Source of the DNA: an uncultured archaeon
Lineage (GTDB): Archaea; Nanobdellota; Nanobdellia; Woesearchaeales; CAIVOO01
Direction: 5' to 3'
Length of the DNA stretch: 38,187 nt
NCBI GenBank assembly: GCA_963845175.1
Contig: CAWJRI010000013.1
Coordinates: forward strand, 1 to 38,187
Shown: piece by piece, positions 9,805 through 31,667 of the stretch
How positions within the stretch are numbered: the first letter of the stretch is position 1
Layout: the number at the start of each line of letters is the position of its first letter
The notes under the pieces: model-generated
Database searches by the model: none
What the model was told of the DNA's origin: nothing
The model's input: the letters and a program-made list of their open reading frames with translations, nothing else
Made by a program: the position numbers and the translations under genes

Positions 9805-9838
9805 TTGTTCAGTGCTCCTTTCTGTGGTAAAGTGAATA

Positions 9839-9936: not shown

Positions 9937-9997
9937 AATGATATTCAAAACTTTAATATTTGTTTATAAAACTTTCGCGAATGAGAAAAATAATCTA

Positions 9998-10070
9998 TGC
10001 GCCGGCCGGGATTCGGACCCGGGTCACAAGCTTGGCAAGCTTGTGTCATAACCAACTAGACTACCGGCGC
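9998..10070 (-). tRNA. tRNA-Gly(GCC)
   Basis: Cloverleaf GCGCCGG...CAAGC-TT-GCC-AA-GCTTG...CCGGCGCA; the T-loop reads TCCGAAT. Confidence 0.93.
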
Positions 10071-10165
10071 AGATAACAGACAAACGCTTAATCGACATAT
10101 ATAAATATTTCTATATTTCGCAAAACCATAAAGCTTAAAAGGTGGGAGATGCAATTTATGGCGCA

Positions 10166-10982: not shown

Positions 10983-11136
10983 ATGGGCCCGCCCGGATCG
11001 AAGCGGAGCAAATTTTACTAAAATTTGATTAAAGGTGATGCGGCTAAAGCGCATTACGCAAATTCTAACAAAGAATGAAAGATTTGCGGTAGCTATTATG
11101 CCCTCGAACAAATAAATCGAATGGGCCCGCCCGGAT
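10983..11136. repeat. 16-bp direct repeat of the tRNA-Val 3' end flanking ~120 bp of hairpins
   Basis: atgggcccgcccggat at 10983-10998 and 11121-11136. Confidence 0.88.
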
Positions 11137-11209
11137 TCGAACCGGGGACCTTCGCCTTTCTGAGCATATGCTTGTAAGGGCGACGTCATAACCGCTAGAC
11201 TACGGGCCC
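11122..11209 (-). tRNA. tRNA-Val(UAC) with a 15-nt intron at 37/38 (11158-11172)
   Basis: TCGCC-CT-TAC-A|AGCATATGCTCAGAA|A-GGCGA, with a relaxed BHB (one mismatch in the central helix) and a normal T arm. Confidence 0.92.
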
Positions 11210-15444: not shown

Positions 15445-18039
15445 ATGAGAAAAACCTTGATTTTATTAGTTTTGGCTTTATTACTTGTCAGCATAGGTGT
15501 TTCTGCAACTATTTCAGACGAAATTTCAAGCAGCGTTGCTGGCTTCGGAGGCAAGGTCTGGGATGTTCTGAAAGGTATTTACAATTTCTTCAGCAGCGGC
15601 ATGACTGGATTTGTTGCTTATACAGGCAAGACTAATGTGACGACAAATTATACACATTCTGAAGATCCGCTGACAAGTGACATGGTCGGCTACTGGAAAC
15701 TTAACGGAAATGCGAATGATGAGACTTCAAATCACAATGACGGAACAGTTTACGGAGCAACGCCTACAACTGACTGCGTTTTCGGGACTGGGAACTGCGC
15801 TTATAGTTTTGATGGGGCAAACAATCACATAACTGTGGCAGATAATAGTGCCCTGGACTTATCTACTAATTTCGCAATTGAGTTTTGGGTAAAAACGAGC
15901 TCAGGCGTCCAATCAGGCATCATAGATAGAACAGACGAAAACGGAACGCAGAATTTTTGGGGTTATGGCGTCTGGATGAATGCTGGAGGACATGTCTACT
16001 TTTATGATGATGTCGGTGGGTGGCAAACATCAGCAGGGACAATAAACAATGGCTCTTGGCATCATGTGGCAGTAACATTAGCAGGAGGAAGCGGGTGTGT
16101 ATATATTGATGGCAGGTGTGACACGGCAATTAATGGCAGTGCAAATTCAAATTCCCTGCCTTTGTTGATTGGCAGCGGAAGAGACGCAAGCAATAACCCC
16201 CTCTATTTCCTCAATGGAATAATAGATCAAGTAATCATCTACAACAGAAGCTTGACTGCGCAAGAAATCAACGAAAGTTATACAAGAGAGATAGCAACAG
16301 TAACAACAAACAAGACAACGAATCTGACAATCTGGGACACAACTGACAATTCACCTGCAATTGTAAATCAGAATGTCTATGTATATGCAAATTACACGGG
16401 AAATGGTCATCCAATAGATGATTCAGTTGGAAGCTGCACATTTAGCCTCACAAGTGCTGCAATGCATTACAATTCTGTTTCAAAGCTCTACTTTTACAAC
16501 GGCAGTTCCCATGTACCATTACATATAAACTACACAATCAACTGTTCTTCGGCAGATTACAATGCGCTGACGCTGTCCGACCAATTGAGTATTGTGAGTT
16601 CAAGGATAAACATCACGAATGTGCTTCCATATGCAAAAACAAAAAATTCAGTAAAAATCAACTGGACAACAAACATCCCTGGCAACTCCACAATAAAATA
16701 CGGAATCACAAAGGCGCTTGCCTCTCATGTCTCAAGCGCTTCAAAGGTTACAAAACATTCTATATCATTGTCTGGCTTGTCGAATGCGACCAGATACTAT
16801 TACAACGTAACCTCATATAATTCTTCAGTTAATTATGCTGTTTCTGGTCCTTACAATTTCACGACAAAAATAAACGATGTTGCACCAATAATTTCAGGTG
16901 TGGTCTCTCATGTGATAGATTCAGAATCTGCAAGAATGACTTGGAACAATTCAGAGCCTGCGAACAGCAGGATATCTTACTCAAAGAATTCTGTGAACTT
17001 TACTCTGAATCAGTCGGATACGAGCTACCGCAGCAACGGTTCGATTACAATTTCTGGGCTTGAAAACTACACAACTTATTACTACAAGATAAAGGCATGC
17101 GATGTTGACGGAGACTGCTCCACATCAAGCATATACAACTTCAGGACGCTGCAGACATCACAGGCGCCTTCTGCAGTTCATGTGCCAGGAACAGGTGAGG
17201 GGCTGCAGCTGCCGCAAATAACCTCTTTCACCCTTACAGAAACTCCTCATCAGTCAACGCTTACACCCGGAGGAAGGTTCATATTTGATATCGACGGAAA
17301 CAGACATGAAATGAAAATGCTTAACGTGCTTGTGGATCGCGTCACGGTGCTGTTCAGCTCCGAACAGCTGAATTTAACATTTAACAAAGGAGAAACAAAA
17401 AAGGTTGACCTTGATGGAGACGGGGTGAATGACATAGAAGTCACCATAAATGACATAATCCTAACAAAGATTATTTTTACAATAAACACAATCAAAGAAG
17501 CAGCAGCGCCTCAAGGAGAAACTGTTCCTGAAAAAACAAATGAAGAAGAAAAGAATGTAACAAAGGAAATGCCCACTGAGCTGGCTGGGACTGGAAAAGG
17601 TTCTTCAATAATTGAAAAGCTGAAATTGGCTTCACTAATATTTGCTGCATTAATTATTGCTGCAGTCATAGGCATAGGCGGTTATTACACTTATCAGAAA
17701 ACTGCCACAGTTGATGTCAGGGAAGCAGCAACTCCAGAGGAAATGGAAAAGATAAATCAGCTGCCAAAGCCCCAGCTGGAAGTGCTGATTGATGATGTCA
17801 AATCAATGCTAAGGGCAAAGGCAACAGAAGATGATGTGAGGGCCCGCCTCGAGGGTGCAAGGCTCTCAAAAAGCGTAATTGATGCGTTGCTCTATGAAAT
17901 AAAAACAGGATTCAGCAGGCTTGACAAGCTGGTACTTTACTTAAAGCTGCAGAAGGTCAGGGGAAAATCAGTGGATAAAATCAGGGGCAGGCTGGCAAGG
18001 GTTGAATGGTCTGAAGAAATACTGAAGCTGCTAGAATAA
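15445..18039 (+). CDS. Membrane-anchored surface glycoprotein: LamG + Ig-like + 2 FN3-like domains + TM + cytoplasmic helical domain
   Basis: Signal peptide; VGYWKLNGNAND...WHHVAVT...GIIDQVIIYNRSLTAQEI (LamG-like); WTTNIPGNSTIKYG...LSNATRYYY (FN3-like, twice); TM IFAALIIAAVIGIGGYY. Confidence 0.88.
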   Translation: MRKTLILLVLALLLVSIGVSATISDEISSSVAGFGGKVWDVLKGIYNFFSSGMTGFVAYTGKTNVTTNYTHSEDPLTSDMVGYWKLNGNANDETSNHNDGTVYGATPTTDCVFGTGNCAYSFDGANNHITVADNSALDLSTNFAIEFWVKTSSGVQSGIIDRTDENGTQNFWGYGVWMNAGGHVYFYDDVGGWQTSAGTINNGSWHHVAVTLAGGSGCVYIDGRCDTAINGSANSNSLPLLIGSGRDASNNPLYFLNGIIDQVIIYNRSLTAQEINESYTREIATVTTNKTTNLTIWDTTDNSPAIVNQNVYVYANYTGNGHPIDDSVGSCTFSLTSAAMHYNSVSKLYFYNGSSHVPLHINYTINCSSADYNALTLSDQLSIVSSRINITNVLPYAKTKNSVKINWTTNIPGNSTIKYGITKALASHVSSASKVTKHSISLSGLSNATRYYYNVTSYNSSVNYAVSGPYNFTTKINDVAPIISGVVSHVIDSESARMTWNNSEPANSRISYSKNSVNFTLNQSDTSYRSNGSITISGLENYTTYYYKIKACDVDGDCSTSSIYNFRTLQTSQAPSAVHVPGTGEGLQLPQITSFTLTETPHQSTLTPGGRFIFDIDGNRHEMKMLNVLVDRVTVLFSSEQLNLTFNKGETKKVDLDGDGVNDIEVTINDIILTKIIFTINTIKEAAAPQGETVPEKTNEEEKNVTKEMPTELAGTGKGSSIIEKLKLASLIFAALIIAAVIGIGGYYTYQKTATVDVREAATPEEMEKINQLPKPQLEVLIDDVKSMLRAKATEDDVRARLEGARLSKSVIDALLYEIKTGFSRLDKLVLYLKLQKVRGKSVDKIRGRLARVEWSEEILKLLE

Positions 18040-18080
18040 ATTTATAAATAAATGGTGTTTTTTAAACAAAAAGAGGCAAA

Positions 18081-18380
18081 ATGGTAAATAAGGAATTGGA
18101 AGAGCTTGAACTTGATGTTGAAAAATACAGAGTGAGGGTTGAGGAGAGGCGCTCTTTCCTTAGTTTTGAGAATGCATTTTTCGTTCCTTTGTTTGCAATA
18201 CTTGTGCTTCTTTCGCTGACGAAGACGAGGACAGACATAATCTATTACATGTTTCTGCTTGCGATTGCGCTGATAATCATTGATTTGGTTTATTCGGTTG
18301 TTCTTTACAGAAGAATGAATAACAAAAGCAAGCTGCTTGATGCAGTCATAAAAGCGAAGCTGAAAAAGCTGCATGGTTAG
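18081..18380 (+). CDS. Small two-TM membrane protein
   Basis: Two hydrophobic segments; GAGG upstream of the ATG. Confidence 0.75.
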   Translation: MVNKELEELELDVEKYRVRVEERRSFLSFENAFFVPLFAILVLLSLTKTRTDIIYYMFLLAIALIIIDLVYSVVLYRRMNNKSKLLDAVIKAKLKKLHG

Positions 18381-18399
18381 AATTCTGGGATAATAAAAA

Positions 18400-18474
18400 T
18401 ATGGGCCCGCGATAAAGATAATCCCGACTCGTGAACTCGTCTGGGATTATCAGACCGCGTGCTATGGGCCCGCG
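18400..18474. repeat. 12-bp direct repeat of the tRNA-Ile 3' end flanking a family A palindrome (18417-18451)
   Basis: tatgggcccgcg at 18400-18411 and 18463-18474; gataatcccgactcgtgaactcgtctgggattatc lies between them. Confidence 0.85.
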
Positions 18475-18538
18475 GAGATTTGAACTCCGGACCTCTACGT
18501 TATCAGCGTAGCGCTCTACCAGACTAAGCTACGGGCCC
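18465..18538 (-). tRNA. tRNA-Ile(GAU)
   Basis: GGGCCCGTAGCTTAGTCTGGTAGAGCGCTACG-CT-GAT-AA-CGTAGAGGTCCGGAGTTCAAATCTCCGCGGGCCCA. Confidence 0.96.
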
Positions 18539-18591
18539 CAATGCGTTAAAACTCATCTGCCTTCTTTATAAATATTTTGCAAAAATGCAAA

Positions 18592-18673
18592 AATAATCCC
18601 GACTCGCAAGCTCATCTGGGATTATTGAGCATTTAAAAAGGCAAAATTTCGACTCCATCGGAATTTTGCCTTT
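18592..18673. repeat. Family A palindrome (18592-18626) and family B hairpin (18637-18673) downstream of tRNA-Leu
   Basis: aataatcccgactcgcaagctcatctgggattatt; aaaggcaaaatttcgactccatcggaattttgccttt. Confidence 0.85.
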
Positions 18674-18679
18674 ATCAAA

Positions 18680-18765
18680 TGCGGGGGAAGGGATTTGAAC
18701 CCTCGGATCCACTAAGGAACAGGATCTTAAGTCCTGCGCGTTTGGCCAGGCTTCGCTACCCCCGC
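18680..18765 (-). tRNA. tRNA-Leu(UAA)
   Basis: GCGGGGG acceptor, CAGGA-CT-TAA-GA-TCCTG anticodon arm, long variable arm, TTCAAAT T-loop. Confidence 0.95.
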
Positions 18766-18920
18766 AAATTTACGCTGCCCGTAACTTGTTACGGACCAGT
18801 AAATCCGCAGATTTACACTGTCTGTAAAGCTATATTGCTGCAATATATTTTAAAAACCTTTTCATTTTAGAAAGGTTTTTAAATCAAAGATTGTTCTTAA
18901 TATATGAAAAGGTGTTTATA

Positions 18921-21900
18921 GTGGGTGGTAAGATTCCCAAGTTAGCTGGAATAGTGCTAGTGGTAGTTCTAATAGCTGTTTCTGTATTCTTTTTGTGCAA
19001 AAATGGGCCTGTTAAAAGCAGTTTGAAAATCAGCTATTCGCTTCCAAATTCCCAAAATAAGGTAACTGGATTCGCTGTTGAAAACGCCACAGGAGAGGTA
19101 AAAAATCTCGTGCTTGAGGATGGCGCGAAGATTGATTATGGAAGCCAGGCAATTGATTTGAGCGGTGTTGATTTGGAAAGCGCTGTCAAGATAACAAACA
19201 CATCTGTCTACGTTGATTCCAAATCTGCGCCTGAGCTGAACAAGCCTGCAAGGCTGACTTTCTACAATGTAACAATTTCAGACCCTGTTATTTTGGAAGA
19301 CGGGAAAAAATGCCCAAATAATGTTTGCTCCAATATTGTTTTTGAAAATGAAGTTTTGAGCTTTGATGTTGCGCATTTCACCAATTTCACATACAACGCA
19401 AACACCAATCTGACCATATGGGACGAAACAGACAGCGGAAGGCCTTACGAAGGCCAGCTGAAGTATGTCAATGATGTTGTCCTGTTCTTTGCAAACTACA
19501 CAAATGAAGCAGGAAATGCGTTGACTCCGACAGGTAATGCAGGCAAATGCAACATATCCTTTGCTGGCTCCGCAAACAATGCAATGGCATATGATGGTAC
19601 AAAACATGTTTACACATATTCAAAAAGCTTTTACCCGAAAGGCGACTGGAAATACAATGTCAGCTGTGTTGCAACAGGGCATACTCTGCTGAATGTGTCA
19701 GACAACGCAACAATTAAAAATAAAATAACATGCGACGCAAGGCCCGATGCAGACACCTGCACAATCATAAACTCGTACCCAATTCTCAAAGAAACAGTCA
19801 TAAATTCAGCTGACATCGGCGCCAAAAACCTAGTGATTGACAGCGGTGGGAAAATCTATTCCAGCCCAGGCAATATAAACCTTACAATCAACCTGACAGG
19901 AAATCTGACAATCAATAATGGAGGGTTGATTAATACTAGTGCGGCATATACTGGGAACGTACTTGACCCTGGTCATTCAGGCGATATAAAAATATTTGCC
20001 AATGTTATTAAAGTTTCTGGAAGCATTTTGAGCGAGGGCAGTTATGGATGGGGCGGACATTATTATCAGCAGTGTGGCCAGGATTATTACGCTTACCATG
20101 GTGGCTATGCCGGAAAAATAATATTAAATGCATCTGAAGTTTATATTTATGGTTCTGGTTCGTTGAGATCAATGGGAAATGATGCTCCATCATCCTCTAA
20201 TCCTTCATGGTATGATGCAGGCCATGGCAATGAAATTAACATAAATGCAACAAAAACATATATTTATGCCGGGGCTTTATTATCTACAGTAGGAGGAAAT
20301 AATGTTAACTATGACGGTTCTGGATGCGGGATGGCGGAAGGAGGTCTTGGAGGCAATATAAGGATAAATTCAAATTCTGTGAACATTGACAGCGCATCAA
20401 TTAATTTGAGCGGGGGTATCTCTCATTATGGCGCTCCTGGATATGGCGGCATCCTGAACATAACAGCCAACACAATTTTATACAAAGGATCTACCACTGC
20501 AACAGGCCAGTCGTCTTACTATGACGGACAAATCCATTTCAACTTCAATAATAACATGACAAGGCTTTCTGGCTACTCCTACAGCCCTGTTGCATGGATA
20601 GAAAATTCCAACCATTGCGCTTATTCAAGCGGAACTTTCTTTAATACAAGCCTGGTGGACAACACAAACTGGATAATAGACAATTACAATTGCCATCTTT
20701 CAGGCAGCCACACATTGAATAATATTGTAATGAAAAATAGCGGAAACGTCACTGGCTCAGGACTGAGCCTGAAAGTCAACAATAACTTTAATTCATCAAA
20801 TTCAGCGTACATAACAGGGCTGAATCTGCTGAACATAAGCAAGAACGCGACAATAATCTCAGGAACACTTGGTCTTGGTAACGCTGCAAATCTGCAGGTC
20901 GCCGATGTGCTGAAAGTCTCTTCAGGCGCAACTCTTCAGGGGTTCAAGAGCCTTGACCCGGACATGATAAATATCTCGGGAAATCTGGTTGTATCAGTCA
21001 ACAACGCAAACATCTCCGGAAAAAACCTAATTGTGGGAAGCACAGGGCAGATTTATTCAAGCCCCATTTCGTATTCATTCAAAATAAACGTGAGTGAAAA
21101 TTTAACTGTTAAGAGTGGCGGGAAAATCCACACATACAATTTAACCTGGGCAGTTGATATGCCTGTTAATACAGCACGCAGTGCTGGGAGTATGACAATT
21201 CTGGCAAAAAACATCAATATTAGCGGAGAAATTGATTCTCTGGGGCCCGGATTTACGAAATCAATTTCTGATGCTTCGCGTGACTACTGTGCCGACAATG
21301 TGTCTAAAGCAGGCAACATACAGATAAATGCCGCCAATAATATTTATTTAAATGGAATTATACAAGCCGTTGGATACAGCAGACTATCTGGGTGTTATTG
21401 GGTTTGCGGCGGCGGGGGCGGAAGCATCGGTCTGCATGCTAACAAAAATATAATTATTTATCCAAATTCGAAAATAAACTCAACCGGAGGCATTGGCACT
21501 CACACTGCATGTTATAGTTACGGGAACGCAGGCGGGGCAGGAGGGAATATCTCTTTAAGTGCAAAGAATATTTCTGCCAAATCGCTTCTTAAAATAAATG
21601 CGCGCGGCGGAGATGCCGCCGAAGGCTGGCCTATTGGAGGCAATGGAGGGTCTGTTAAAATCAATGCAACAGGCAGCATTCTAAATATCTCAACAGGAAT
21701 TATTGACACTAGAGCAGGAACGGTAGTCGGTACTCAAGGCTATTCTGGCAATGTATTCCTAATATCACCAAAAACAATTCTAAGTATAATAAACATAACA
21801 ACAACCGGATACAACTCTTCTTACGATGGAAATATCAAATTCACAAGATTGTGCGGCTGGAACAGGGGAACTTATGCTCCGTCTGCAAACTACAATATTA

Positions 21901-24900
21901 TAAATGGTTATGGGGATTCAGATCATGACGCGATTTATGATGACTCTTTAGTAACTGTGTGCGGCATCTACAAGGACAACTGCCCAAATAATTTCAACCC
22001 TGGACAAGAGGACTCCAATCACAACGGATTCGGCGATGTATGCGATGCCACAATTTATTACACAGTCCAGAATCAGAATACAAGCCAGGATTCAAACAAC
22101 CTGGTTGACATTGACAACCAGCCGACTGCAATATGGGCTCTTTACAAAACAGGAGTGGGCATGCCAATACCTGCAAATGTTTTCTTTAATTTCTACAGAG
22201 AGGGCATTTTAATAGCAGGGCTTTCATGTTTTGGAAATACAAACTGCACCTATAACACCACGCAATCCATTGGCACCCATAACATAACAATCGAAGCTAA
22301 CTCAACAATATACCCGTATACAAGTGTTTCTTTTAATTTCACTGTCACAAACATATTAGTTTCAAGGAAATTGAGCGGCGCAACCAATTATCTTTTCAAT
22401 GGATACAATACAACAAGGAACTTGATATTATCAATCTCAGGAAACATGTCATATATTCACAATAACAAAAGACTTGATCAGAACCAGCAATACGAACTGT
22501 GGATTGATGGCGTGAAGAATGCGTCTTCTGTAACAATGGCTAATGGAGTGTATCAGACTAATTTAAATGTTGGAAACATTCTTGGAAACCACATTGCAAA
22601 AATAAACATCTCGCAGGCAACGGGGCTTTACGGCGAAACATCTGTTCTTTACACTGTCTGGATGGGCACTGGCCTGACAAATTATCTTGTGCAGAAGCAG
22701 CCTGGGGCAACAGACAACCAGGTTGATATCGACGACAAGAATGTGAGCATAAACATTACCTACATTAATGATACATCAGGTCCAATCCCCGGAACAATAA
22801 ACATCACAGTAAACAATGTCCTGAAAAGCTGCCCTCCGGCAAAAAGCTGTGGACAATTATTCAGTCTCGGTACGGGAAAGAATATCCCTGCCTTGGGAAC
22901 TTACACTGTTTATTTCACTGCAAGAAACAATTCAGCTTATTACAGACCGCAAACTACAACTGCCGGACAGTATCAAATAAGAGTAAGGAACATAACAATA
23001 ACGGAAACTATAACGCCTGACCATGCCCAGCCAGGCCAGCTGATTACTGTGAGTGGAAGGGCGTTTTACGCTGATAATAATGAGAATGTAACAAACAAAT
23101 ATCTGTCAATATACGTCAACGGAACATTCAATAAATCAGTGCAAACAAATACTGTTGGTGTTTACACGCACACCTTCCATGCATATCCTGTGCAGGACGC
23201 GGGAATTTACAATGTCAGCGTCAATTACACCGACACGAATGGAATAGGCGGCAAGTCAGTAAAATTGTTCGGCATATTTACACCAACGAAAGTTTCAGTC
23301 ATCAACTGGACATACAACAAGACAACTGCTGTGTTCAACATAAGCGCGAATTACTCGAGAGCTGACACGAACCAGCCAATCAGCGGAAACTGGAATGTTA
23401 TCCTCAAAAATACAAAAATTCCCTCGATAAACGCGACAAAACAATGCTATGGCAAGAATATTTGCACACTCTCTTTCAAGCTCGGAACAGGAGCAGGGGT
23501 TGATTTAAGAGGAGGAAACACAACAATAATTGTCAGTGCCAAAAACGAATCAGCTTATTTCAATTCAAGCTCATACTCCTTCCTGAAGTACCTGGAGGAA
23601 AAAAATACTACTGTAAAATTATGGGTGCAGAGCCGTGTGGTAACTGACAAGGTTTCGGCGCCCTATTCGCTAAACATCACAGCTGTTCTGAACAACACAG
23701 GATTCGGAACAGCCTACAACCCGATAATTTATGTGACTTATTTTGATTCGGGATTTTCTTCGCCGAACAGCATCCTTCCCTGCACTGCAAATCTCACCCC
23801 TTCAGACCTCGGCGGGAACATCTGCAGGCTTAATTTCACAATCAACATTTCTGCAGCTACTGGCGAGGGCAATTATATTATTTATTGGAAAGCAAATTTC
23901 ACAAACAATGATAAAAGCACTAAACTGTCCTCTCCTGCGACAAAAAGCACAATAAATATCTCAGGGATCGCAACAGTTGCCCTGGAGACACCTTTCAAGA
24001 GAACTATAAGCCACAGGACAACAGCATATTTCGTTACAGAAATTAATAACACAGGAACAACAACAGCAAGGCACGTTAATGTAACATTCAGCAATCGCGG
24101 GCTGCCGCAAAGCTGGGTTAACTGGACATGGTATAATTTTGGTAGAAATCACGATTCCAACGGTCTGCTGGATTTGATATGCGACCAAATCACAATAAAT
24201 GGAGGAGGAACCTCATACTGCACTGCCGATGAATGGGGAAAGGCATACGAACCATTAAACATCACTGTCTCTGTGCCTGCCGGAACAAGCCCGGGAAATT
24301 ACATAGGAATATTGAATTTCAGCTACTGCTTCGGCCCTTCATGCTCGCAAAAACATTACAGGGAAATGCTCCTGAACATCAGCGTTCCCCTGGACAACAG
24401 CTGGTATCAATATCCAAAAATCTCGTACAAAACAGTCGGGCTGAACATACCTGGAACTATTGAGACAATTTTTGTAAACAATACAGGCAATGTCAACGAA
24501 AATTTCACAATAGCTTATGGAAAGAATTTAACTCAATCATATCCTAAGTTTGCCCCTGAGGACAATCCCTCCACAATTTTTGCGCCGAAGAATTCTTTGG
24601 TTAGTTTTTCATTGGTTCATGGCGCATTTACAACTGCAAAAAACTATGTTCTTGAAGTAAATATTACAAATGCCACTGCTAATCCTCAATTAAACACCAC
24701 GTTAATTTACTTGACAGTTGTTAACGTTCCTCCAAGCATTACCATCACAAAAGTAAGTGAAAATCCTGTTGATGTCAACAGGCAGATTAACATCACTGCA
24801 AATATAACAAATGACGACAACTCCCCGCAAAACACAGTCAAAGCCTGGGGTGTTTTCAACCATTCGTCGGGAATTTCTTATAAAACACCAGTACAATCAT

Positions 24901-27900
24901 TTACAGTTAGTCCGGGAAACTACATTACCAAAACATTCTCATATAGCCCTCAGCTCAACGGAACATACAAAGTCACTATCTTTGCCAACGACACCGGCAA
25001 CAGGATTGGAAACACATCAGTTTTCTTCAGCACCTGGGGCTACACAACATTAAACATCACAAGAAACATGTCAGCAGTAAAGATTTACAATGTGACGCAG
25101 GCTGATTCGAAAAAATTCAGCTTCAACCTCACAGTGAAAAACATCGGGCATGCAAGGGCATACATCACTAACCTGACTGCGTTTGTGCCGAGCGGCTGGC
25201 TGGCAACAATCACCAGAATCGGAACAATTGTTATAAATCAGATAAAATCAGCAGTCATAAACATAACTGTCCCTGCGACAACAAAGCCCGGCTTGTATTA
25301 TGTCTATCCAAAAGCAGTTTGGAGGCAGGCAAATGGAACAATTGTAGGCAATCTTGGCGAAAGCATCAATGTGAATGTGACATCTACGCAGCGCCTTTCA
25401 CTTGGCAACTACCTAAATTCAACCAGCGTAGACCACGGCACAACAAAGAAAACAAATTTCACACTGAATTCGATAGGCAACACAAACCTGACAGATGCCC
25501 ACATAACCTGTTCAGGAGTGGAATGCGGAACATTTGGCATCATTCTCAGCCCAAGCTACATCGCGAACATTGCAGGAGGGAATTATAAAAGAATAAACCT
25601 GACAATCAGCGTGCCAAGGGGTCAGGCATGGCTGGCTGGCGGATACTTTGTGACAATCGGCGCATCAAATGCGTATGATTCAAAGAGCTACTCGCTGAAC
25701 ATCATTGTTCCAAAAGATGAAACTTATGCGTCAAAAAGCAACATCACGATAAACACAGTCTCAAAATACAAAAGCGTCTATTATTACAGGATAAACAACA
25801 CAGGAAACGTAAATGAAAGCCTTGTGTTCAACCTGACAGGGGCGCAGGTGACTCCAATAATAAACCTGCTGAAAAATGGAACATTGATAACAGCCCAGCA
25901 GCACTATGACCTTGGCCTCAACTACACTGCACCAGACATATCAGGAACAAACGTTAGAAATGGCAACCTGACAATAAGGGGACCGGTAAATAAAATAATT
26001 CCAATAATATTCAACACCTACGGCGTTGTCTTGGGTGTGAAAAACATCTCAAAGACAAGCAACATTATTGCAGGCAACAAACTGGTTTTCAGGTTTAACA
26101 TAAGCCTGGCTGGCACGCCGCTGATGGCAAACGTTTCCTATAAAATCTATATTAGTGGAAACAAGGCAACAATAAATTACAAAAGAATCTCAAACAATGA
26201 CACAATACTAAATTTCACTGCGCCTGCTGCAAGGGACGGAAGGCGCAATAACCTGACGCTTGAAACCACCTACAACAGCAACATCGGCGTGCTCGTCTTC
26301 AACACGACACTGGTGAATGCCCTGCTTTACAGGGATGTGACGCCTCCTTCAGTAATCGACGAATACTCGCCTTCGGTTGAGCTGGGGAATAACATAACAA
26401 TGGAGATTAATACCACAGACAACATCAACATCAGCAGGGCAATTGCAGTTGTAAATGGAATTACGTATGCGCTGGCAACAACAAATGGTTACACATACAA
26501 ATATACATTCGCAACGCCTGCAAAGGGGGATTATGACATAACATACAAAATCAATGACACGACAAACAACCTGAGGACATATTCCGAATACTTTGAGGTG
26601 TTTGAATACAAGCACCTGTACGGTGTTGTTAATGACTACAAGAATGTCAGCACCATTTTCAAATTCTACAGGCCAAACAGCACGCAGTTGCTTTACAATT
26701 ATACAACAAACCATATTTACAACCTGACTGTGCACAAGAGGAATTATGACATAATTATAGCATTCACAAACTCAACCCTCACTCTAAGAGGAGTTAACGC
26801 AACAATTCTGCCTGATGATTTCCTCAAAATGGGAAAAGTTCCGTCAACAATAAGGGTTACGCCTAGCGTAAAGACGCTTAATGGAATAGGGGGCAGCATA
26901 AATCTTTCAAACATAAACGGGCTTTTGATGTTTGAATTCAACCCAAATGATATAGCTGACCTGAACAGACTGGGCATATGGAAATGCAGCAGCTGGAACA
27001 TGGCAAGCGAAAGCTGTTCAAGCAGCTGGACAAAAATCACCAGCACTGTGATAAACAATCATATATATGCAATTCTTACGTCGCTTTCCGCCTATATTTT
27101 CGGCCAGGATAACAGTGTGGCAGCAACCACCGTAACAAATGTAGGTGGCGGGGGCGGAGGAGGGGGTCCATCAATATCGCAAATCGCACAGCTTGTGAAT
27201 GAAAGCAAGCAAATACTTCAAGAGATTAAAAAACAAGCTATCAGGGGGTTGTCGGTAGACACCACAGATGTGTCTGTTGAGCTTTATCCAGGAGAAAGTG
27301 CATCAACAATAATAAAATTGGTAAATACGAGAAATGAAACAGTCACAGCACATATAAAAGTTTCGGGTGATGCTGCAAATTATACGACCGTATCGCCGGA
27401 AAGTGTTGTACTGGCAAAAGGTGAGGAAGCCGGATTTGACGTTGAAATAAATATCCCAAAAACAGAACTAGAATCAGGAATGAAATACGGAAGAATCATA
27501 CTTTCAGCCGGCGAAGAGGAAACAGACATTCCAGTTAAAATAAGGCTTCTTGCACCTGTGGGAATGGAGCCGAAGATTACCGTAGAACCGCTTTCAACAA
27601 ATGTTGTGCCTGGGGAAAACCTGAAAGTCCAGTTTGAAATTACTCATCCGATTGAAATTCCAAGATTATATAATGTAAGCCTTGAGCTGGTAAACACGCA
27701 GTTTGGTGCAGTAATCTCTGAAATTTCACAAAAATATGCAATCGGCAAGACAACGGTTGATTCGCTTACATTAAATGTTCCTCAAAACGCTGCACTTGGG
27801 GAATATTATGTAAAGGGAACGCTGTATTACAATGAAAGCGGCGTAATAAAAAGTGTAACAGATGCAAAACCAGTAAGTATTGTCAAGCCGCTGACAGAAA

Positions 27901-29525
27901 GAATCAAGACATTTGCATTTACGAAAGTTGCGTTCCTGACAGTCTGGCAGATTGTACTTATTATTATTTGTTTAGGTGTGATTGCAAGTGCTGTGCAGGA
28001 ATACAGGGTAGTTATGAAGAAGAAGAAGAAATACCAATTCATTGTAGATTATGAAACGCTTCCAGAACCAGGGCCGAGGTCTGCCTGCGTCGGAGTCGTA
28101 GCTGAAACCAACAAGAGGGCTTTTATTGATATTGACAAGTTAACAATGCACACAATAGTTGCGGGCGCAACAGGAGGCGGAAAGACTATAGCTGCGCAGG
28201 ACATTGTGGAGGAATGCCTGCTGAAGAACATATCTGTGGTTGTCTTTGACCCAACTGCCCAGTGGACCGGCTTCCTGAGAAAATGCGACGACAAAAAAAT
28301 GATGAGGCTTTACAGCAAATTCGGCCTTTCGCCAAAGGCAGCCCGCGCATTCAACGGAAGCATACATGAGGTGACAAATCCGAGGGAGGTGCTTGACCTC
28401 AAGAAGTTCATGAAGCCGGGCGAAATAAATATAATCGCCATAAACAAGCTCGAGCCTGAGGAGATTGACATATTTGTCGCAAACACAGTCAGGGAGATAT
28501 TCAGGATGAATCTTCCTGAATCCCCAGATCTGAAGACGTTGATAGTCTATGACGAAGTGCACCGCCTCCTGCCGAAGTACGGCGGGTCTGGCGAGGGAAT
28601 CATACAGCTTGAAAGGGGATGCAGGGAATTCAGGAAGTGGGGCGTTGGCGTGCTGCTCATCTCGCAGGTGTTGTCTGACTTCGTAGGCGAGATAAAGGCG
28701 AACATAAACACAGAAATGCAGATGAGGACCAGGCATGAAGGGGATTTGACAAGGATATCGCGCAAATACGGCGAATACATACTGCAGAACCTAGTAAGGG
28801 CGGGCGTCGGAACTGGAATGATTGAAAACGCCGAATGGAACAAGGGCCATCCATATCTTGTGACGTTCAGGCCGATACTGCACGCCACAAAGAGGCTGAC
28901 AGACGATGAACTTGAAAAATATAATAAATATGACAACATAGTCGAGGACATAAGAAATGAAATTGAACAGCTGAAAGATTCCAATGTTGATGTTTATGAC
29001 CTTGAAATCGAGCTGAACCTTGCGCTTGGCAAGCTCAAGTCAGGCAATTTTGAGATGGTTGAGATTTATCTTGACGGCATAAAACCAAGGATTCAGAAGC
29101 ACTGGCAGGCGCTTGGAAAGACGCCGAAGAAGCGTGAAATAAAGCTTGTGCCTGAAGAGGAAATTAAAAAAGAAATAGAAGAGGCAAAGAAGGCAAGAGA
29201 AGCTTACCTCACAAGGCTGAGAAAAGTTCCTGAGGTGGAGCTCGGCCAAGCTCTAAGAGAAGTAGTTGGAGAGTCTACGAAAAAGCCTGCTGAGGCTGAT
29301 AAAAAACCAGCTGAAAAGGGAGAAGTTTCAATCCGCGATCTCGTAAACCATTACAATGGTTTGAGGAAAAAGGTCTTGGAAATAAATGACAAGATAAAGC
29401 TGCGCGATGCCGCAACAAAACTGACAAAAACTGCAGAGGATGTTAAGAAAGCCATGCAGACAAACAACAGGGATGATATTGTCAGGCTGAAAAAAGACCT
29501 TGAGGAAATAGAAAAAGGTTTATAA
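18921..29525 (+). CDS. Giant (~3,530 aa) surface protein fused via a TM helix to a cytoplasmic HerA/FtsK/VirB4-like (DUF87-type) ATPase
   Basis: Probable GTG start after AGGTG. N-terminal anchor; Gly-rich repeats; thrombospondin type-3-like DNCPNNFNPGQEDSNHNGFGDVCD; many Ig/CARDB-like units; poly-Gly linker; TM ~27940-27995; Walker A GATGGGKT (~28164-28187); VVVFDPT; Walker B IVYDEVH; FRKWGVGVLLISQ. Confidence 0.9.
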   Translation: MGGKIPKLAGIVLVVVLIAVSVFFLCKNGPVKSSLKISYSLPNSQNKVTGFAVENATGEVKNLVLEDGAKIDYGSQAIDLSGVDLESAVKITNTSVYVDSKSAPELNKPARLTFYNVTISDPVILEDGKKCPNNVCSNIVFENEVLSFDVAHFTNFTYNANTNLTIWDETDSGRPYEGQLKYVNDVVLFFANYTNEAGNALTPTGNAGKCNISFAGSANNAMAYDGTKHVYTYSKSFYPKGDWKYNVSCVATGHTLLNVSDNATIKNKITCDARPDADTCTIINSYPILKETVINSADIGAKNLVIDSGGKIYSSPGNINLTINLTGNLTINNGGLINTSAAYTGNVLDPGHSGDIKIFANVIKVSGSILSEGSYGWGGHYYQQCGQDYYAYHGGYAGKIILNASEVYIYGSGSLRSMGNDAPSSSNPSWYDAGHGNEININATKTYIYAGALLSTVGGNNVNYDGSGCGMAEGGLGGNIRINSNSVNIDSASINLSGGISHYGAPGYGGILNITANTILYKGSTTATGQSSYYDGQIHFNFNNNMTRLSGYSYSPVAWIENSNHCAYSSGTFFNTSLVDNTNWIIDNYNCHLSGSHTLNNIVMKNSGNVTGSGLSLKVNNNFNSSNSAYITGLNLLNISKNATIISGTLGLGNAANLQVADVLKVSSGATLQGFKSLDPDMINISGNLVVSVNNANISGKNLIVGSTGQIYSSPISYSFKINVSENLTVKSGGKIHTYNLTWAVDMPVNTARSAGSMTILAKNINISGEIDSLGPGFTKSISDASRDYCADNVSKAGNIQINAANNIYLNGIIQAVGYSRLSGCYWVCGGGGGSIGLHANKNIIIYPNSKINSTGGIGTHTACYSYGNAGGAGGNISLSAKNISAKSLLKINARGGDAAEGWPIGGNGGSVKINATGSILNISTGIIDTRAGTVVGTQGYSGNVFLISPKTILSIINITTTGYNSSYDGNIKFTRLCGWNRGTYAPSANYNIINGYGDSDHDAIYDDSLVTVCGIYKDNCPNNFNPGQEDSNHNGFGDVCDATIYYTVQNQNTSQDSNNLVDIDNQPTAIWALYKTGVGMPIPANVFFNFYREGILIAGLSCFGNTNCTYNTTQSIGTHNITIEANSTIYPYTSVSFNFTVTNILVSRKLSGATNYLFNGYNTTRNLILSISGNMSYIHNNKRLDQNQQYELWIDGVKNASSVTMANGVYQTNLNVGNILGNHIAKINISQATGLYGETSVLYTVWMGTGLTNYLVQKQPGATDNQVDIDDKNVSINITYINDTSGPIPGTINITVNNVLKSCPPAKSCGQLFSLGTGKNIPALGTYTVYFTARNNSAYYRPQTTTAGQYQIRVRNITITETITPDHAQPGQLITVSGRAFYADNNENVTNKYLSIYVNGTFNKSVQTNTVGVYTHTFHAYPVQDAGIYNVSVNYTDTNGIGGKSVKLFGIFTPTKVSVINWTYNKTTAVFNISANYSRADTNQPISGNWNVILKNTKIPSINATKQCYGKNICTLSFKLGTGAGVDLRGGNTTIIVSAKNESAYFNSSSYSFLKYLEEKNTTVKLWVQSRVVTDKVSAPYSLNITAVLNNTGFGTAYNPIIYVTYFDSGFSSPNSILPCTANLTPSDLGGNICRLNFTINISAATGEGNYIIYWKANFTNNDKSTKLSSPATKSTINISGIATVALETPFKRTISHRTTAYFVTEINNTGTTTARHVNVTFSNRGLPQSWVNWTWYNFGRNHDSNGLLDLICDQITINGGGTSYCTADEWGKAYEPLNITVSVPAGTSPGNYIGILNFSYCFGPSCSQKHYREMLLNISVPLDNSWYQYPKISYKTVGLNIPGTIETIFVNNTGNVNENFTIAYGKNLTQSYPKFAPEDNPSTIFAPKNSLVSFSLVHGAFTTAKNYVLEVNITNATANPQLNTTLIYLTVVNVPPSITITKVSENPVDVNRQINITANITNDDNSPQNTVKAWGVFNHSSGISYKTPVQSFTVSPGNYITKTFSYSPQLNGTYKVTIFANDTGNRIGNTSVFFSTWGYTTLNITRNMSAVKIYNVTQADSKKFSFNLTVKNIGHARAYITNLTAFVPSGWLATITRIGTIVINQIKSAVINITVPATTKPGLYYVYPKAVWRQANGTIVGNLGESINVNVTSTQRLSLGNYLNSTSVDHGTTKKTNFTLNSIGNTNLTDAHITCSGVECGTFGIILSPSYIANIAGGNYKRINLTISVPRGQAWLAGGYFVTIGASNAYDSKSYSLNIIVPKDETYASKSNITINTVSKYKSVYYYRINNTGNVNESLVFNLTGAQVTPIINLLKNGTLITAQQHYDLGLNYTAPDISGTNVRNGNLTIRGPVNKIIPIIFNTYGVVLGVKNISKTSNIIAGNKLVFRFNISLAGTPLMANVSYKIYISGNKATINYKRISNNDTILNFTAPAARDGRRNNLTLETTYNSNIGVLVFNTTLVNALLYRDVTPPSVIDEYSPSVELGNNITMEINTTDNINISRAIAVVNGITYALATTNGYTYKYTFATPAKGDYDITYKINDTTNNLRTYSEYFEVFEYKHLYGVVNDYKNVSTIFKFYRPNSTQLLYNYTTNHIYNLTVHKRNYDIIIAFTNSTLTLRGVNATILPDDFLKMGKVPSTIRVTPSVKTLNGIGGSINLSNINGLLMFEFNPNDIADLNRLGIWKCSSWNMASESCSSSWTKITSTVINNHIYAILTSLSAYIFGQDNSVAATTVTNVGGGGGGGGPSISQIAQLVNESKQILQEIKKQAIRGLSVDTTDVSVELYPGESASTIIKLVNTRNETVTAHIKVSGDAANYTTVSPESVVLAKGEEAGFDVEINIPKTELESGMKYGRIILSAGEEETDIPVKIRLLAPVGMEPKITVEPLSTNVVPGENLKVQFEITHPIEIPRLYNVSLELVNTQFGAVISEISQKYAIGKTTVDSLTLNVPQNAALGEYYVKGTLYYNESGVIKSVTDAKPVSIVKPLTERIKTFAFTKVAFLTVWQIVLIIICLGVIASAVQEYRVVMKKKKKYQFIVDYETLPEPGPRSACVGVVAETNKRAFIDIDKLTMHTIVAGATGGGKTIAAQDIVEECLLKNISVVVFDPTAQWTGFLRKCDDKKMMRLYSKFGLSPKAARAFNGSIHEVTNPREVLDLKKFMKPGEINIIAINKLEPEEIDIFVANTVREIFRMNLPESPDLKTLIVYDEVHRLLPKYGGSGEGIIQLERGCREFRKWGVGVLLISQVLSDFVGEIKANINTEMQMRTRHEGDLTRISRKYGEYILQNLVRAGVGTGMIENAEWNKGHPYLVTFRPILHATKRLTDDELEKYNKYDNIVEDIRNEIEQLKDSNVDVYDLEIELNLALGKLKSGNFEMVEIYLDGIKPRIQKHWQALGKTPKKREIKLVPEEEIKKEIEEAKKAREAYLTRLRKVPEVELGQALREVVGESTKKPAEADKKPAEKGEVSIRDLVNHYNGLRKKVLEINDKIKLRDAATKLTKTAEDVKKAMQTNNRDDIVRLKKDLEEIEKGL

Positions 29526-29560
29526 AAAAGAAATGATTAACTTCAAAAAAAGAGGCGAAA

Positions 29561-30640
29561 ATGGGATTATTCACAAGGAAAACAAAAACAGATATTGAGG
29601 AGATGATAGCTGCGCCTGAAGAGGAAGAGGCGCCCAAGGAAGAAGTTAATGCTCATTCTGAAATAAGAATTTCAGCGAAGATTGAAAAGCTTGGGGCGCA
29701 GATTGAGGCACTGAACGAGCTCAGAAAGGTCAATGAAGAAAGATTCAGCAGGCTCAACGAGCAGATAGGCGAGATAAGGGATAATCTATTTCAGAAAGAG
29801 AAAGACATAAAGGACATAGAAATTAAGGCGGTTAGGGCGCATGACCTTGTGGAAAGCGTTCAGCCACAGCAGCTTGGAGGCATGGTCCAGAAAGAGGACG
29901 CAAAAATAGAGTCGCTGAGAGCGGGTGTCGAGGGCAGCAGGGCGCTGCTTGATAATGTTGTTGAGGATTTGAAGGACATAAGAAGAAGGATTGAGATGTT
30001 CAGGGGTGTGGAGCAGGTTATCAAGCTCAGCCAGGATGTTAAAAATGACCTTATAGGCGTTGAAAAGGTGAGGGTTGATGCAGAGCGCCATGCTGACAAG
30101 GTTTCAGGCATATTCACAGAGGTTGAGCGCAGGTTCAAGGATTTCGCTGACCTGAAAAATAGGATAGGTGATATTGAATCATCATTCAAATCAGTGCTCA
30201 AGGAGTTCGACGAGATGCGGACAAAGGTTTCTGAGATTGTAAGCTCTGAGCAGCTGAACAGGCTGAAGGATGAGATTCACAGCGAAAACTCGTCAATAAT
30301 ATTAAACCTTAACAAGCTGAAAAGTGAGTTTGAACAGCTGAATAAGCCGGCTGTAAAACCAGAGGATTTCAGGGTCGCGATGTCTAGGGTGAGGGAAATG
30401 GTAAGGAGGGGAAAGAGTGACGAAGATATTGTCGCGTTCCTAAGCATATTCAAACTTCAGCCGAGCATAGAGGCATTCATAGTCAATGACTGCAGAAATC
30501 CCGAGAGCGTTCTAATGAGGATTGTGGATTTCATAAGAAAGGAGCGCTCCATCGGAAGGGTTGACGAGGAAATCAAAGAAGCTGTTCTTTCAAAAGGCTG
30601 GTCAAGAGAAGTTGCGGACCTGGCATTAAGCTTTGCCTAG
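29561..30640 (+). CDS. Cytoplasmic coiled-coil protein with C-terminal helical domain
   Basis: MGLF start, long heptad region, C-terminal ...EEIKEAVLSKGWSREVADLAL; 35 bp after the giant gene, with GAGG upstream. Confidence 0.85.
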   Translation: MGLFTRKTKTDIEEMIAAPEEEEAPKEEVNAHSEIRISAKIEKLGAQIEALNELRKVNEERFSRLNEQIGEIRDNLFQKEKDIKDIEIKAVRAHDLVESVQPQQLGGMVQKEDAKIESLRAGVEGSRALLDNVVEDLKDIRRRIEMFRGVEQVIKLSQDVKNDLIGVEKVRVDAERHADKVSGIFTEVERRFKDFADLKNRIGDIESSFKSVLKEFDEMRTKVSEIVSSEQLNRLKDEIHSENSSIILNLNKLKSEFEQLNKPAVKPEDFRVAMSRVREMVRRGKSDEDIVAFLSIFKLQPSIEAFIVNDCRNPESVLMRIVDFIRKERSIGRVDEEIKEAVLSKGWSREVADLALSFA

Positions 30641-31134
30641 TACCTGTACAAATTCAAGAATGATTTTACTGCCGTATGAAGGTTGGTGGTGTCTGTCTTA
30701 AGGCTGTTCTCAAATTTCTGCGTGTAAATCTTGTAGACATACTTGTCAACCAGCGTCCTTATGAAGAATAAAACAGGCTTCTGCTCCCATCTCTGGGCAT
30801 AGTCTGTTTCAAGGTAAGCGTCAAAATTTATCGCTATTTCGCCCTTATTCATCCTGCGCTTCTTCTTGTCTATCTCTATGTCAACTTCCTTTACATTCAT
30901 CATAATTATCTTCATCACAATCCTGTTCTGCACATAATCAGAAACCTTCCTGTTAGGCTCGAGCCTCATCTCAATATATTTCCCCTCCTGCTTGACATAT
31001 TCGATTGTTTCCTTTTCAACCTTGTCGTAGCCGTTCTCCTTTAGCCAGTCGTCAATTATTTTATACAAGTCCAGAACGCTGAACAAGCCGTCGTATTTCA
31101 GCAACATTCCTTTTATTACGAGTCTTTTTTCCAT
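30637..31134 (-). CDS. Hypothetical protein, paralog of 31137-31667
   Basis: Ungapped similarity to its neighbour (G.F.....Y..I..W.KE..YD; NKG; DY..R.E.KP). Confidence 0.88.
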   Translation of the reverse strand: MEKRLVIKGMLLKYDGLFSVLDLYKIIDDWLKENGYDKVEKETIEYVKQEGKYIEMRLEPNRKVSDYVQNRIVMKIIMMNVKEVDIEIDKKKRRMNKGEIAINFDAYLETDYAQRWEQKPVLFFIRTLVDKYVYKIYTQKFENSLKTDTTNLHTAVKSFLNLYRY

Positions 31135-31136
31135 TG

Positions 31137-31667
31137 TTAAAATGCGCTGTAAGCGGTCTCCATATTTAATATTTTCTTTATTTCAGTATGAAGCGTGTAT
31201 ACCTCATAGTAAAGCGTATCCACAGGACCAAGCATCAGCTTCATCCAAAGTATATTGTCAATTAGGAGATTATAAAGCTGGATATAAAAAGGCTTTTCCT
31301 CAAATCTTTTCTCGTAATCAAAAACAACCTCCATGTTTATTACAACCGTCATCCTGCCTTTATTTAATTTTTGTTTTTTCCCGTCCTTTACAACCTCAAC
31401 ATCAGTCATGTCCCAGATATGCAGGTCAACACTAACTTTGTACATTATCCATTCTGACTGCTTTCTTTCGCCCTTGAAAGATATTTCAACCTCAGGACCT
31501 TTTGGGGTTGCCTTGTGCTTGTAGGCTGTTTCGTGAACATCGTAAAGCCTTTCCTTAAACCAGCTGTAGATGCCTCTGTAAAATTTGTCATAATCGAAGA
31601 CTCCAGAAAACTTTATCTCACTTATTGTCTCCTTTACACTTGGTATCTTTTTTTTGGGAATAGCCAT
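31137..31667 (-). CDS. Hypothetical protein, paralog of 30637-31134
   Basis: Same shared motifs; 2-bp spacing suggests translational coupling. Confidence 0.88.
   Translation of the reverse strand: MAIPKKKIPSVKETISEIKFSGVFDYDKFYRGIYSWFKERLYDVHETAYKHKATPKGPEVEISFKGERKQSEWIMYKVSVDLHIWDMTDVEVVKDGKKQKLNKGRMTVVINMEVVFDYEKRFEEKPFYIQLYNLLIDNILWMKLMLGPVDTLYYEVYTLHTEIKKILNMETAYSAF

Follow-up and report, generated by a model that had tools for sequence, protein, structure and literature searches.

Three neighbouring genes of an uncultured archaeon of the Woesearchaeales, which we call P1, P2 and P3, are the subject of this analysis. They lie on the plus strand of contig CAWJRI010000013.1 (GenBank assembly GCA_963845175.1), as seen in its list of open reading frames (ORFs), and the whole stretch of 38,187 nucleotides is referred to as the window. 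We consider it probable that the conserved unit at this locus consists of two genes, namely P2, a giant surface protein with a cytoplasmic ATPase, and P3, its coiled-coil neighbour, working as a motor of the FtsK-HerA type as modelled below. The first-pass annotation had instead combined all three genes into one trans-envelope machine held together by shared domains. In the 687-kb assembly (G000; 20 contigs, 65% complete) the window is contig C13, and matches to its proteins are labelled Woesearchaeota or Nanobdellota.

A giant surface ATPase and its coiled-coil partner

From its N-terminus, P2 consists of an anchor helix, an adhesin-like ectodomain of ~2965 amino acids (aa) rich in sequons, a transmembrane (TM) helix, a cytoplasmic ATPase and a charged helical tail. 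Hydropathy places the two hydrophobic helices at residues 8-41 and 3007-3041, and 135 of the 137 N-x-S/T sequons are found ahead of residue 2982. The features of P2 and P3 are as follows:

18891-29525, plus strand: P2, 3544 aa, SPEARE-type giant surface protein
19404-19715, plus strand: P2 copy of domain A, a module shared with P1 (BLASTP, Smith-Waterman, genome search)
25113-25316, plus strand: P2 NPCBM_assoc domain, CARDB-like and Ig-type (PF10633, 37.3 bits against a cut-off of 24.4)
27144-27167, plus strand: run of eight glycines, P2 residues 2752-2759, ahead of the last Ig-like domains and the TM helix (sequence)
27909-28013, plus strand: P2 C-proximal TM helix, residues 3007-3041 (hydropathy)
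28014-29210, plus strand: P2 cytoplasmic ATPase of the FtsK-HerA superfamily, DUF87 (Pfam, PDB, motifs, alignment)
28164-28187, plus strand: P2 Walker A motif GATGGGKT, intact
28539-28556, plus strand: P2 Walker B motif LIVYDE, intact
29211-29522, plus strand: P2 variable C-terminal tail (alignment, module scans), its last 104 aa charged and, by eye only, helical
29561-30640, plus strand: P3, 359 aa, cytoplasmic, coiled-coil family P3cc
29648-30340, plus strand: P3 long-helix core, residues 30-260 (model helices 30-97, 102-226 and 229-260; mean pLDDT 72.7)
30356-30637, plus strand: P3 tail of two GW repeats (GWx2), residues 266-359 (profile matches and model)

In the P2 ectodomain, NPCBM_assoc is the sole Pfam match above its cut-off. 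An Asp/Asn-rich stretch at residues ~1009-1050 (21915-22050; DSDHD...NCPNNFNPGQEDSNHNGFGDVCD) resembles, by eye, thrombospondin type-3 calcium-binding repeats; no Pfam match to it was reported.

The cytoplasmic part of P2 (503 aa) matches DUF87 with 36 bits (cut-off 23.2) and HerA_C with 29.5 bits (cut-off 22). Below cut-off it also resembles TrwB_AAD_bind and FtsK_SpoIIIE in Pfam, and CedD (E = 1.1e-7), HerA, VirB4 and TraD in NCBIfam, where no family-specific cut-off is reached. Alignment with 13 orthologues (46-53% identity) reveals ~80 invariant columns. This ATPase domain is present at E <= 1e-5 in 256 proteins of 1949-6202 aa; among the best 120 of these 256, the 119 relatives besides P2 are 44-61% identical to it in the ATPase, and they are labelled as coming from Woesearchaeota, Pacearchaeota, Nanohaloarchaea, Aenigmatarchaeota and Micrarchaeota, among others. 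One of them, RLG14629.1 (P0118), sits on a 9424-bp contig and is given as a match to the giant protein SPEARE, from "9 kbp ... deep sea hydrothermal vent sediments", in the main text of PMC6642349. Because the cytoplasmic part of P2 is 49% identical to this published SPEARE match over 99% of its length (E = 4.5e-155), we count P2, by sequence, as a new member of the published family of SPEARE or "giant membrane-anchored extracellular proteins", the link running through RLG14629.1 rather than through a direct comparison with the Ca. Nanohaloarchaeum antarcticus protein.

P2 is not the only giant of this genome. The assembly has four more open frames of 1977-4788 aa, none of which matches the ATPase:

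C12, 20803-35166, plus strand: further giant frame
C11, 13186-20178, plus strand: further giant frame
C1, 44083-50643, minus strand: further giant frame, with a copy of domain A
C19, 14610-20540, minus strand: further giant frame

P3 starts 35 bp downstream of P2. Hydropathy detects no hydrophobic helix in it, and its structure model consists of three long helices followed by six short ones. Hydropathy and the P3 model bear out the topologies that the first-pass annotation had inferred: P1 is a type-I protein, here with a 114-aa tail, P2 runs from the ectodomain through a TM helix to the ATPase, and P3 is a cytoplasmic helical protein. The first ~260 residues of P3 define the P3cc family, which has 92 members at E <= 1e-3. 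Its core of ~250 aa has ten invariant columns (F4, R61, E67, G70, R73, A93, D95, P102, G149 and D179) in an alignment of which P3 is both the query and the first row. Outside resources say little about this family: a PDB profile search with the P3cc alignment returned only coiled-coil noise, Pfam gave scattered coiled-coil families only for the 26 members scanned, and the Atlas places P3cc in clusters of hypothetical proteins.

The link between P2 and P3 emerges from three surveys, which covered 41 related genomes, 201 genomes sampled from the phylum, and 35 fetched ATPase loci; the same genomes supplied part of the loci, and related genomes do not make independent samples. P3cc is present in 11 of the 41 relatives, all of them among the 12 with a strong ATPase match, and in none of the other 29. 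In the phylum sample it occurs in 34 of 37 ATPase-positive genomes vs 7 of the 164 remaining ones; as read from the place tables, it lies on the same strand no more than 3 kb downstream in 28 of the 34. Among the fetched loci with downstream sequence, 29 of 30 have P3cc downstream of the ATPase gene. Because of this synteny and co-occurrence, and not because of shared domains, we regard P2 and P3 as a conserved and, to judge by the genomes compared, functional pair. This is the strongest link at the locus, and one that the first-pass annotation had not argued.

We also considered whether P3cc is ever fused to the giant protein, which we reject, since the P3cc profile matches none of the best 120 of the 256 giants. 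In 7 of 19 loci (L047, L048, L051, L054, L056, L058 and L063), the next large same-strand ORF after P3cc encodes a surface-type protein of ~1300-2100 aa with an N-terminal hydrophobic helix, which may be a further regular member of the operon. In the window, P3 is followed on the minus strand by two adjoining genes, 30637-31134 and 31137-31667, which are paralogues of each other. Their products, of 165 and 176 aa, are 26% identical (E = 3e-17) and match nothing in Pfam.

Tail modules and a model of the motor

Short forms of the ATPase (~1200-1400 aa) are found in a regular operon with the order S, ATPase, X, P3cc. Protein S is anchored at the surface as a type-I protein, and its cytoplasmic tail measures ~105-210 aa; the S gene overlaps or abuts the ATPase gene. 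Protein X is cytosolic. Giant-type loci, including the window, are without S and X, and P3cc follows directly after the giant gene. The relatives G036 and G039 have a giant and a short ATPase as a pair. The adjacency of P3cc persists across differing operon forms, short or giant, with or without S and X.

Profiles built from the fetched loci define four cytoplasmic modules, for which we introduce the names GW, YY, XN and XC. YY is on the S tails in 18 of the 24 loci with upstream sequence; elsewhere, 5 loci have it on the ATPase tail, 6 on X and 1 on the P3cc tail, and L063 has it on S, ATPase and X alike. XN is found on ATPase tails and on X, and in one X protein this module matches Pfam DUF5752 (31 bits, cut-off 23). 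XC is on X, a separate protein, in short operons, and at the extreme C-terminus of 30 of the best 120 of 256 giants, RLG14629.1 among them. System tail modules (GW or YY) are joined to P3cc in three lineages, G000, G024 and G002. This recurrence of tail modules on different operon members across lineages makes tail-mediated assembly plausible, as far as sequences can speak for it. In two S-less loci, L041 (G143:C7, 5445-7510) and L059 (1602-3269), the ATPase gene is preceded by an array of four small genes in tandem; each of these encodes one XN (DUF5752-like) module, and some also a C-terminal TM helix.

Scans of the window with these profiles detect no S, X, YY, XN or XC, and none of the four modules on the P2 tail, but GWx2 on P1 and P3 instead. 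The GW repeat comprises ~40 aa and three helices. The first-pass annotation had reported an ungapped alignment between the cytoplasmic tail of P1 and the C-terminus of P3, and this is borne out: P1 residues 785-871 (17776-18036; P1 residues are numbered in the 871-aa frame from TTG 15424) align with P3 from residue 270 (30368) with 18 of 87 identities, vs 9 at the next best offset. Pairwise BLASTP alone is marginal (E = 0.035). The Smith-Waterman score of 77, however, is not reached by any of 1000 shuffles (28.4 +/- 5.0), and a profile of nine tails from other organisms, from which the window's protein and its 88% relative were left out, matches the P3 tail with E = 7.1e-10 over profile positions 8-98. 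With an 11-sequence tail profile, the next best of the 3625 frames searched in G000 has E = 0.15, and a single-repeat profile made from other organisms picks out no frames but those of P1 and P3 at E < 0.1. AlphaFold models of both tails share a layout of two three-helix units; in the P1 model (pLDDT 84.7), the helices span positions 27-40/45-54/59-71 and 75-88/93-102/107-113 of the 114-aa tail.

Few proteins have this tail: among 1.84 billion representatives, phmmer with the P1 tail as query detects 12 at E <= 0.001, and in the P3cc family the GWx2 tail is restricted to P3 and the 83%-identical P0004, which have the last 90 residues in common. On the window's own tails, Pfam gives nothing near cut-off (a weak DUF2226 on the P3 tail, E = 0.027), Foldseek against PDB no match at E <= 0.001 (best 0.79), and a wide VIA-align search nothing at Z >= 5. 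A complex prediction for the P3 tail (residues 256-359, 2-row alignment) and the P1 tail (15-row alignment) returned a score of 0.00, "no answer", which is no evidence either way.

Among the giants, GW occurs at the extreme C-terminus of 7 of the best 120 of 256 by an iterated profile and of 3 by an independent two-repeat profile. By ATPase sequence, the latter three, P0108-P0110, rank first to third among the matches to P2. GW is thus in cis on P2's nearest relatives and on the adjoining partner P3 in the window. In G024, a GW repeat is present on both the giant's C-terminus and its P3cc, and in G002, from the same family as G000, a frame between the ATPase gene and P3cc holds a GW repeat and an XC module. 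At this locus (L027, G002:C50, ~1620-2235), the ATPase ORF ends in a low-complexity, Arg/Gly-rich sequence in its own frame, and the overlapping frame encodes GW and XC. This points either to a small gene that overlaps the ORF or to a frameshift in the ATPase tail, whether genuine or introduced by assembly. GW is also found on tails of giants that lack the ATPase, in G027 (2604 aa, three repeats) and G024:C2 (5420 aa, three repeats). The GW tail is a movable module, and its sharing does not prove a three-part machine.

G000 has a third GW protein, encoded at C12:50287-51120 on the plus strand and unlinked to the window: a 278-aa type-I membrane protein with one GW repeat as its short cytoplasmic tail. 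The idea of a second SPEARE-like locus on C12 was rejected, since the weak ATPase likeness at C12:51102-51503 (E = 0.0049) is due to an unrelated small ORF beside this protein.

Together, the data suggest a model for the P2-P3 pair, in which the ring, its substrate and the role of P3cc are inferred from what is known of the FtsK-HerA superfamily. The ATPase domains of P2 would form a ring of the HerA/FtsK type beneath the membrane and so hold the P2 ectodomains at the site of host contact. ATP hydrolysis would drive the movement of a polymer (DNA or protein) or mechanical work, and P3cc would sit on the ring as a cytoplasmic scaffold or adaptor. The cytoplasmic ends would carry exchangeable small helical modules (GW, YY, XN and XC), on different members according to lineage.

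Several points weigh against this model or limit it. The genome is 65% complete, and missing modules or genes may simply be unassembled. In G040, P3cc is exceptionally found just upstream of the giant gene, and in the phylum sample 3 genomes have the ATPase without P3cc and 7 the reverse. The co-occurrence counts also overstate significance, since genomes from a single order cannot be treated as independent. Foldseek finds no significant match for the P3 model, only generic long-helix proteins (best E = 0.015), so that the word "scaffold" only interprets the shape of P3cc. With the iterated GW profile, high scores for its own members are a matter of course, given how it was built. Finally, the P3 tail is closer to the tail of P0098 from the P1 family (E = 1.4e-12 over 90 aa) than to the giant tail of P0109 (E = 6.7e-6). 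As it is nearer to P1-family tails, a simple transfer of GW from the end of P2 to P3 is incomplete as an account.

A bolder version of the model is tentative, and we would sooner bet against it. Here the SPEARE-type motor would be a hub, and adhesins would dock to the ring and to P3cc through matching helical tail modules, YY in the canonical operons and GW in the window. If so, lineages would rewire the coupling of adhesins by moving modules among the giant's C-terminus, X, P3cc and adhesin tails, and P1, perhaps also the GW protein on C12, would be clients of the P2-P3 motor.

The upstream surface protein and rival readings

P1 has an N-terminal signal or anchor helix, a LamG domain, domain A, two FN3-like domains, a TM helix and the 114-aa cytoplasmic tail. 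Its hydrophobic helices are at residues 3-34 and 728-757 (hydropathy), and all 27 N-glycosylation sequons lie ahead of the TM helix. The features of P1 and of the interval between P1 and P2 are:

15445-18039, plus strand: P1, 864 aa from ATG 15445, or 871 aa from the alternative start TTG 15424
15811-16272, plus strand: P1 LamG domain (Laminin_G_3, PF13385, E = 3.7e-23, 82.8 bits against a cut-off of 27.6)
16318-16593, plus strand: P1 copy of domain A, ~100 aa (BLASTP, Smith-Waterman, genome search)
16630-17157, plus strand: two FN3-like domains of P1 (Pfam Pur_ac_phosph_N, E = 1.3e-10; fn3, E = 1.7e-5)
17605-17694, plus strand: P1 TM helix (hydropathy)
17776-18036, plus strand: P1 cytoplasmic GWx2 tail, two three-helix repeats (profile matches and model)
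18081-18380, plus strand: 99-aa ORF, two hydrophobic helices, no family assigned
18465-18538, minus strand, antisense to P1, P2 and P3: tRNA-Ile (GAT) (ARAGORN; Rfam 73.2 bits)
18679-18766, minus strand, antisense to P1, P2 and P3: tRNA-Leu (TAA) (ARAGORN; Rfam 56.4 bits)

The gap of 850 bp between P1 and P2, with its 99-aa ORF and two tRNA genes on the opposite strand, had been omitted from the first-pass annotation. Pfam does not match the 99-aa ORF. It is probably a real gene for a small membrane protein, because the predicted protein is almost identical in the metagenome contig L046, whose DNA is 89% identical to the window. All five tRNA genes of the window are on the minus strand (9838-9937, 9997-10071, 11122-11209, 18465-18538 and 18679-18766); ARAGORN finds four, and Rfam adds the one at 11122-11209, which ARAGORN misses. 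The call for tRNA-Ile (TAT) is 100 nt long, which suggests an intron.

Apart from the tail, P1 shares domain A with P2. That the two share an extracellular domain had been noticed in the first-pass annotation, and the homology is real: P1 residues 299-390 and P2 residues 172-275 match in BLASTP with E = 7e-9, the motif TNLTIWD.TD ... ANYT ... G.C is reproduced, and the Smith-Waterman score of 129 is not reached by any of 1000 shuffles (33.5 +/- 6.3). As a tie between P1 and P2, however, domain A fails. With the P2 copy as query, it is detected at 52 places in 25 of the 41 related genomes, in frames of 391-5280 aa and in some cases in tandem; a third copy in the genome itself lies in a 2187-aa frame (G000:C1:48289-48585, minus strand), and none of the 49 places outside G000 is in an ATPase-bearing ORF. 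Pfam gives nothing near cut-off for either copy of the window. Domain A is thus the kind of generic module, spread over many surface proteins without linkage, that the first-pass annotation itself had named as speaking against its proposal.

Could P1 nevertheless belong to the motor? The three-gene trans-envelope machine of the first-pass annotation would require P1 to dock on P3, and so on the ATPase, by contact between the two GWx2 tails, with P1 standing in for S. There are arguments for this: canonical operons have S immediately upstream of the ATPase gene, with a YY module (18 of 24 loci) that recurs on X, the ATPase tail or P3cc, and the window, lacking S, X and their modules, has GWx2 on P1 and P3, the only frames of the genome that match the single-repeat profile at E < 0.1. 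The order of the P1 end, 99-aa ORF, tRNA genes and P2 start is kept in L046, a 1068-bp metagenome contig found with a single-tail query; the argument is weak, since a relative with 89% nucleotide identity is too near to serve as independent evidence. The distribution of P1 speaks against the three-gene machine. P1-type tails at E <= 1e-5 are found in seven genomes (G000, G001, G003-G006 and G027), of which G000 alone has the ATPase and P3cc; searches for the ATPase and for P3cc came up empty in G001 and G003-G006, which are 82-99% complete. A GW-tailed surface protein adjoins the ATPase gene in none of the other 34 loci, and G000 itself has an unlinked GW protein on C12. The S genes overlap or abut the ATPase gene, whereas P1 is separated from P2 by 850 bp with two antisense tRNA genes. 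That P1 is an orthologue of S was rejected, since only the generic domain A is common, and this with 2 of 8 S proteins. Moreover, the P3 tail is less like P1's own tail (27.7 bits) than like P1-family tails elsewhere (49.3 bits). We therefore regard the three-gene machine as unlikely. Of the earlier proposal, the P2-P3 part stands, on synteny and co-occurrence, and the membership of P1 does not; assembly through a shared helical module is plausible in so far as relatives repeatedly share tails among operon members, but the GW-tailed neighbour itself is a peculiarity of this locus among the 35.

Rather, P1 is probably a separately transcribed adhesin with LamG and FN3 domains, from a family that also exists without the ATPase system. 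Its relatives (~1000-1120 aa) combine domain A, a beta-helix region, FN3, a juxtamembrane domain, a TM helix and GWx2; P0096, whose tail is 88% identical, lacks LamG. P1 may have been drawn to the P2-P3 site through the GW module without being a required part.

The preferred two-gene reading must also be weighed against the notion that P3cc is a conserved neighbour with a job of its own, for example in cell division or membrane remodelling, and no physical partner of the ATPase, GW being a general membrane-proximal or localisation module. Such independence would fit the 7 of 164 ATPase-less genomes with P3cc, the GW tails on ATPase-less giants in G027 and G024:C2, and weak Foldseek rows for the P3 model that include Vipp1 (E = 0.088). 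It is harder to reconcile with the adjacency of P3cc through differing operon forms, with the failure to find it in any of the 29 relatives whose genomes have no strong match to the ATPase, and with the joining of GW or YY to P3cc in G000, G024 and G002, and we hold it to be quite improbable.

One could also take the P2 ATPase for a common helicase of the HerA type, serving DNA repair or defence and fused by chance to a surface protein. This reading has in its favour the DUF87 and HerA_C matches and those to PDB HerA and anti-phage HerA chains (E = 1.5e-5 to 2e-3), but we can hardly believe it, given that the HerA equivalogs score far below their cut-offs (NF040819 25.6 bits vs 970, NF040937 20.2 vs 800), that Walker A starts 51 residues after the TM helix and leaves no space for the HerA N-terminal barrel, that the flanking ORFs scanned have no Pfam match to a HerA partner (four of the five ORFs 3' of P3 are without any family), and that the domain is membrane-anchored behind an ectodomain in all 37 ATPase ORFs examined.

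Comparison with known systems

Among known systems, the FtsK-HerA ring ATPases (HerA, FtsK, VirB4, VirD4/TrwB and CedD) share with P2 the P-loop core, Walker A and B, and weak matches across the superfamily. P2 differs from them in having a giant ectodomain in the same chain, and its hexamer and substrate are putative. Membrane-anchored pumping ATPases include FtsK, VirD4 and the type VII protein EccC. A type IV secretion system finds no echo in the neighbourhood, where no family of such systems was detected among the window neighbours scanned, and P2 misses the cut-offs of the corresponding ATPases (TrwB_AAD_bind 19.5 bits vs 20.5, VirB4_plasma 22.5 vs 590, TraC 19.6 vs 567).

The GW repeat, with its tandem ~40-aa units of three helices each, is reminiscent of the three-helix repeats of RecX. 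Three pointers, all below significance, lead there: RecX_HTH2 on the relative P0099 (Pfam, E = 3.4e-4, 21.2 bits vs a cut-off of 26), the VIA-align top row for the GW tail (RecX 3d5l_B, Z 4.6, rmsd 2.6 over 49 residues), and the best named Atlas cluster (score 0.78, RecX_HTH1 in 17% of members). The window's own tails have no Pfam RecX match, and Foldseek gives E = 5.6. The likeness to RecX is weak, and nothing suggests a function related to RecA.

The closest counterparts of P2 are the giants of Nanohaloarchaeota. The main text of PMC6642349 describes SPEARE as very long and mostly extracytoplasmic, with a C-proximal TM helix, a cytoplasmic end that is the most conserved part, and relatives in Woesearchaeota. 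P2 resembles this description in its mostly extracellular chain, its TM helix near the C-terminus and its conserved cytoplasmic end. The Pfam ResIII match, source of the "restriction enzyme" reading of SPEARE in that text, is also present in P2 (25.1 bits); the serine protease, toxin-like and endonuclease domains ascribed to SPEARE there were not found in P2 by Pfam. All SPEARE members are said in the same text to have at least one laminin-G domain plus other adhesion domains. P2 departs from this description, since it has no LamG at E <= 0.01 and LamG is on the neighbouring P1; many of the ATPase relatives, among the matches listed, are also without PF13385 in precomputed Pfam lists. The coiled-coil partner gene, P3cc in the window, is not mentioned for SPEARE in the main text of PMC6642349.

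Two further giants, SVXNc_0300 and BNXNv_0298, are presented in PMC10266531, in the passages concerned with them, as having a Sec signal, an Ig-rich ectodomain, a TM helix, a cytosolic VirB4/TraG-like ATPase and a coiled-coil tip, and endonuclease and protease domains are rejected there for the family. P2 matches this order of parts, its coiled-coil tip being judged by eye, and the P2 data likewise speak against the endonuclease reading; the flanking ORFs scanned have no Pfam match to a nuclease family. The gene downstream differs: according to the same passages it encodes a second ATPase of the same class, whereas P3cc directly follows P2 in the window. P3cc and the tail modules, present here, are not mentioned in these passages for the two giants.

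Giant SPEARE-type proteins are the most conspicuous candidates for the hold of DPANN archaea on their hosts and for the exploitation of these. The proposals for them are opposed, with DNA degradation and invasion on one side (main text of PMC6642349) and a type IV-like secretion "straw" on the other (PMC10266531, in the passages on the giants). Our searches in a limited collection of papers, with PMC6642349 represented by its main text, found no description of the P3cc partner or the tail modules. P3cc and the modules shared within the operon offer concrete, testable candidates for interaction, and the modules a way to predict, genome by genome, which surface proteins work with the motor. The giant family itself is already published; the P3cc partner and the shuffled tail modules extend it.

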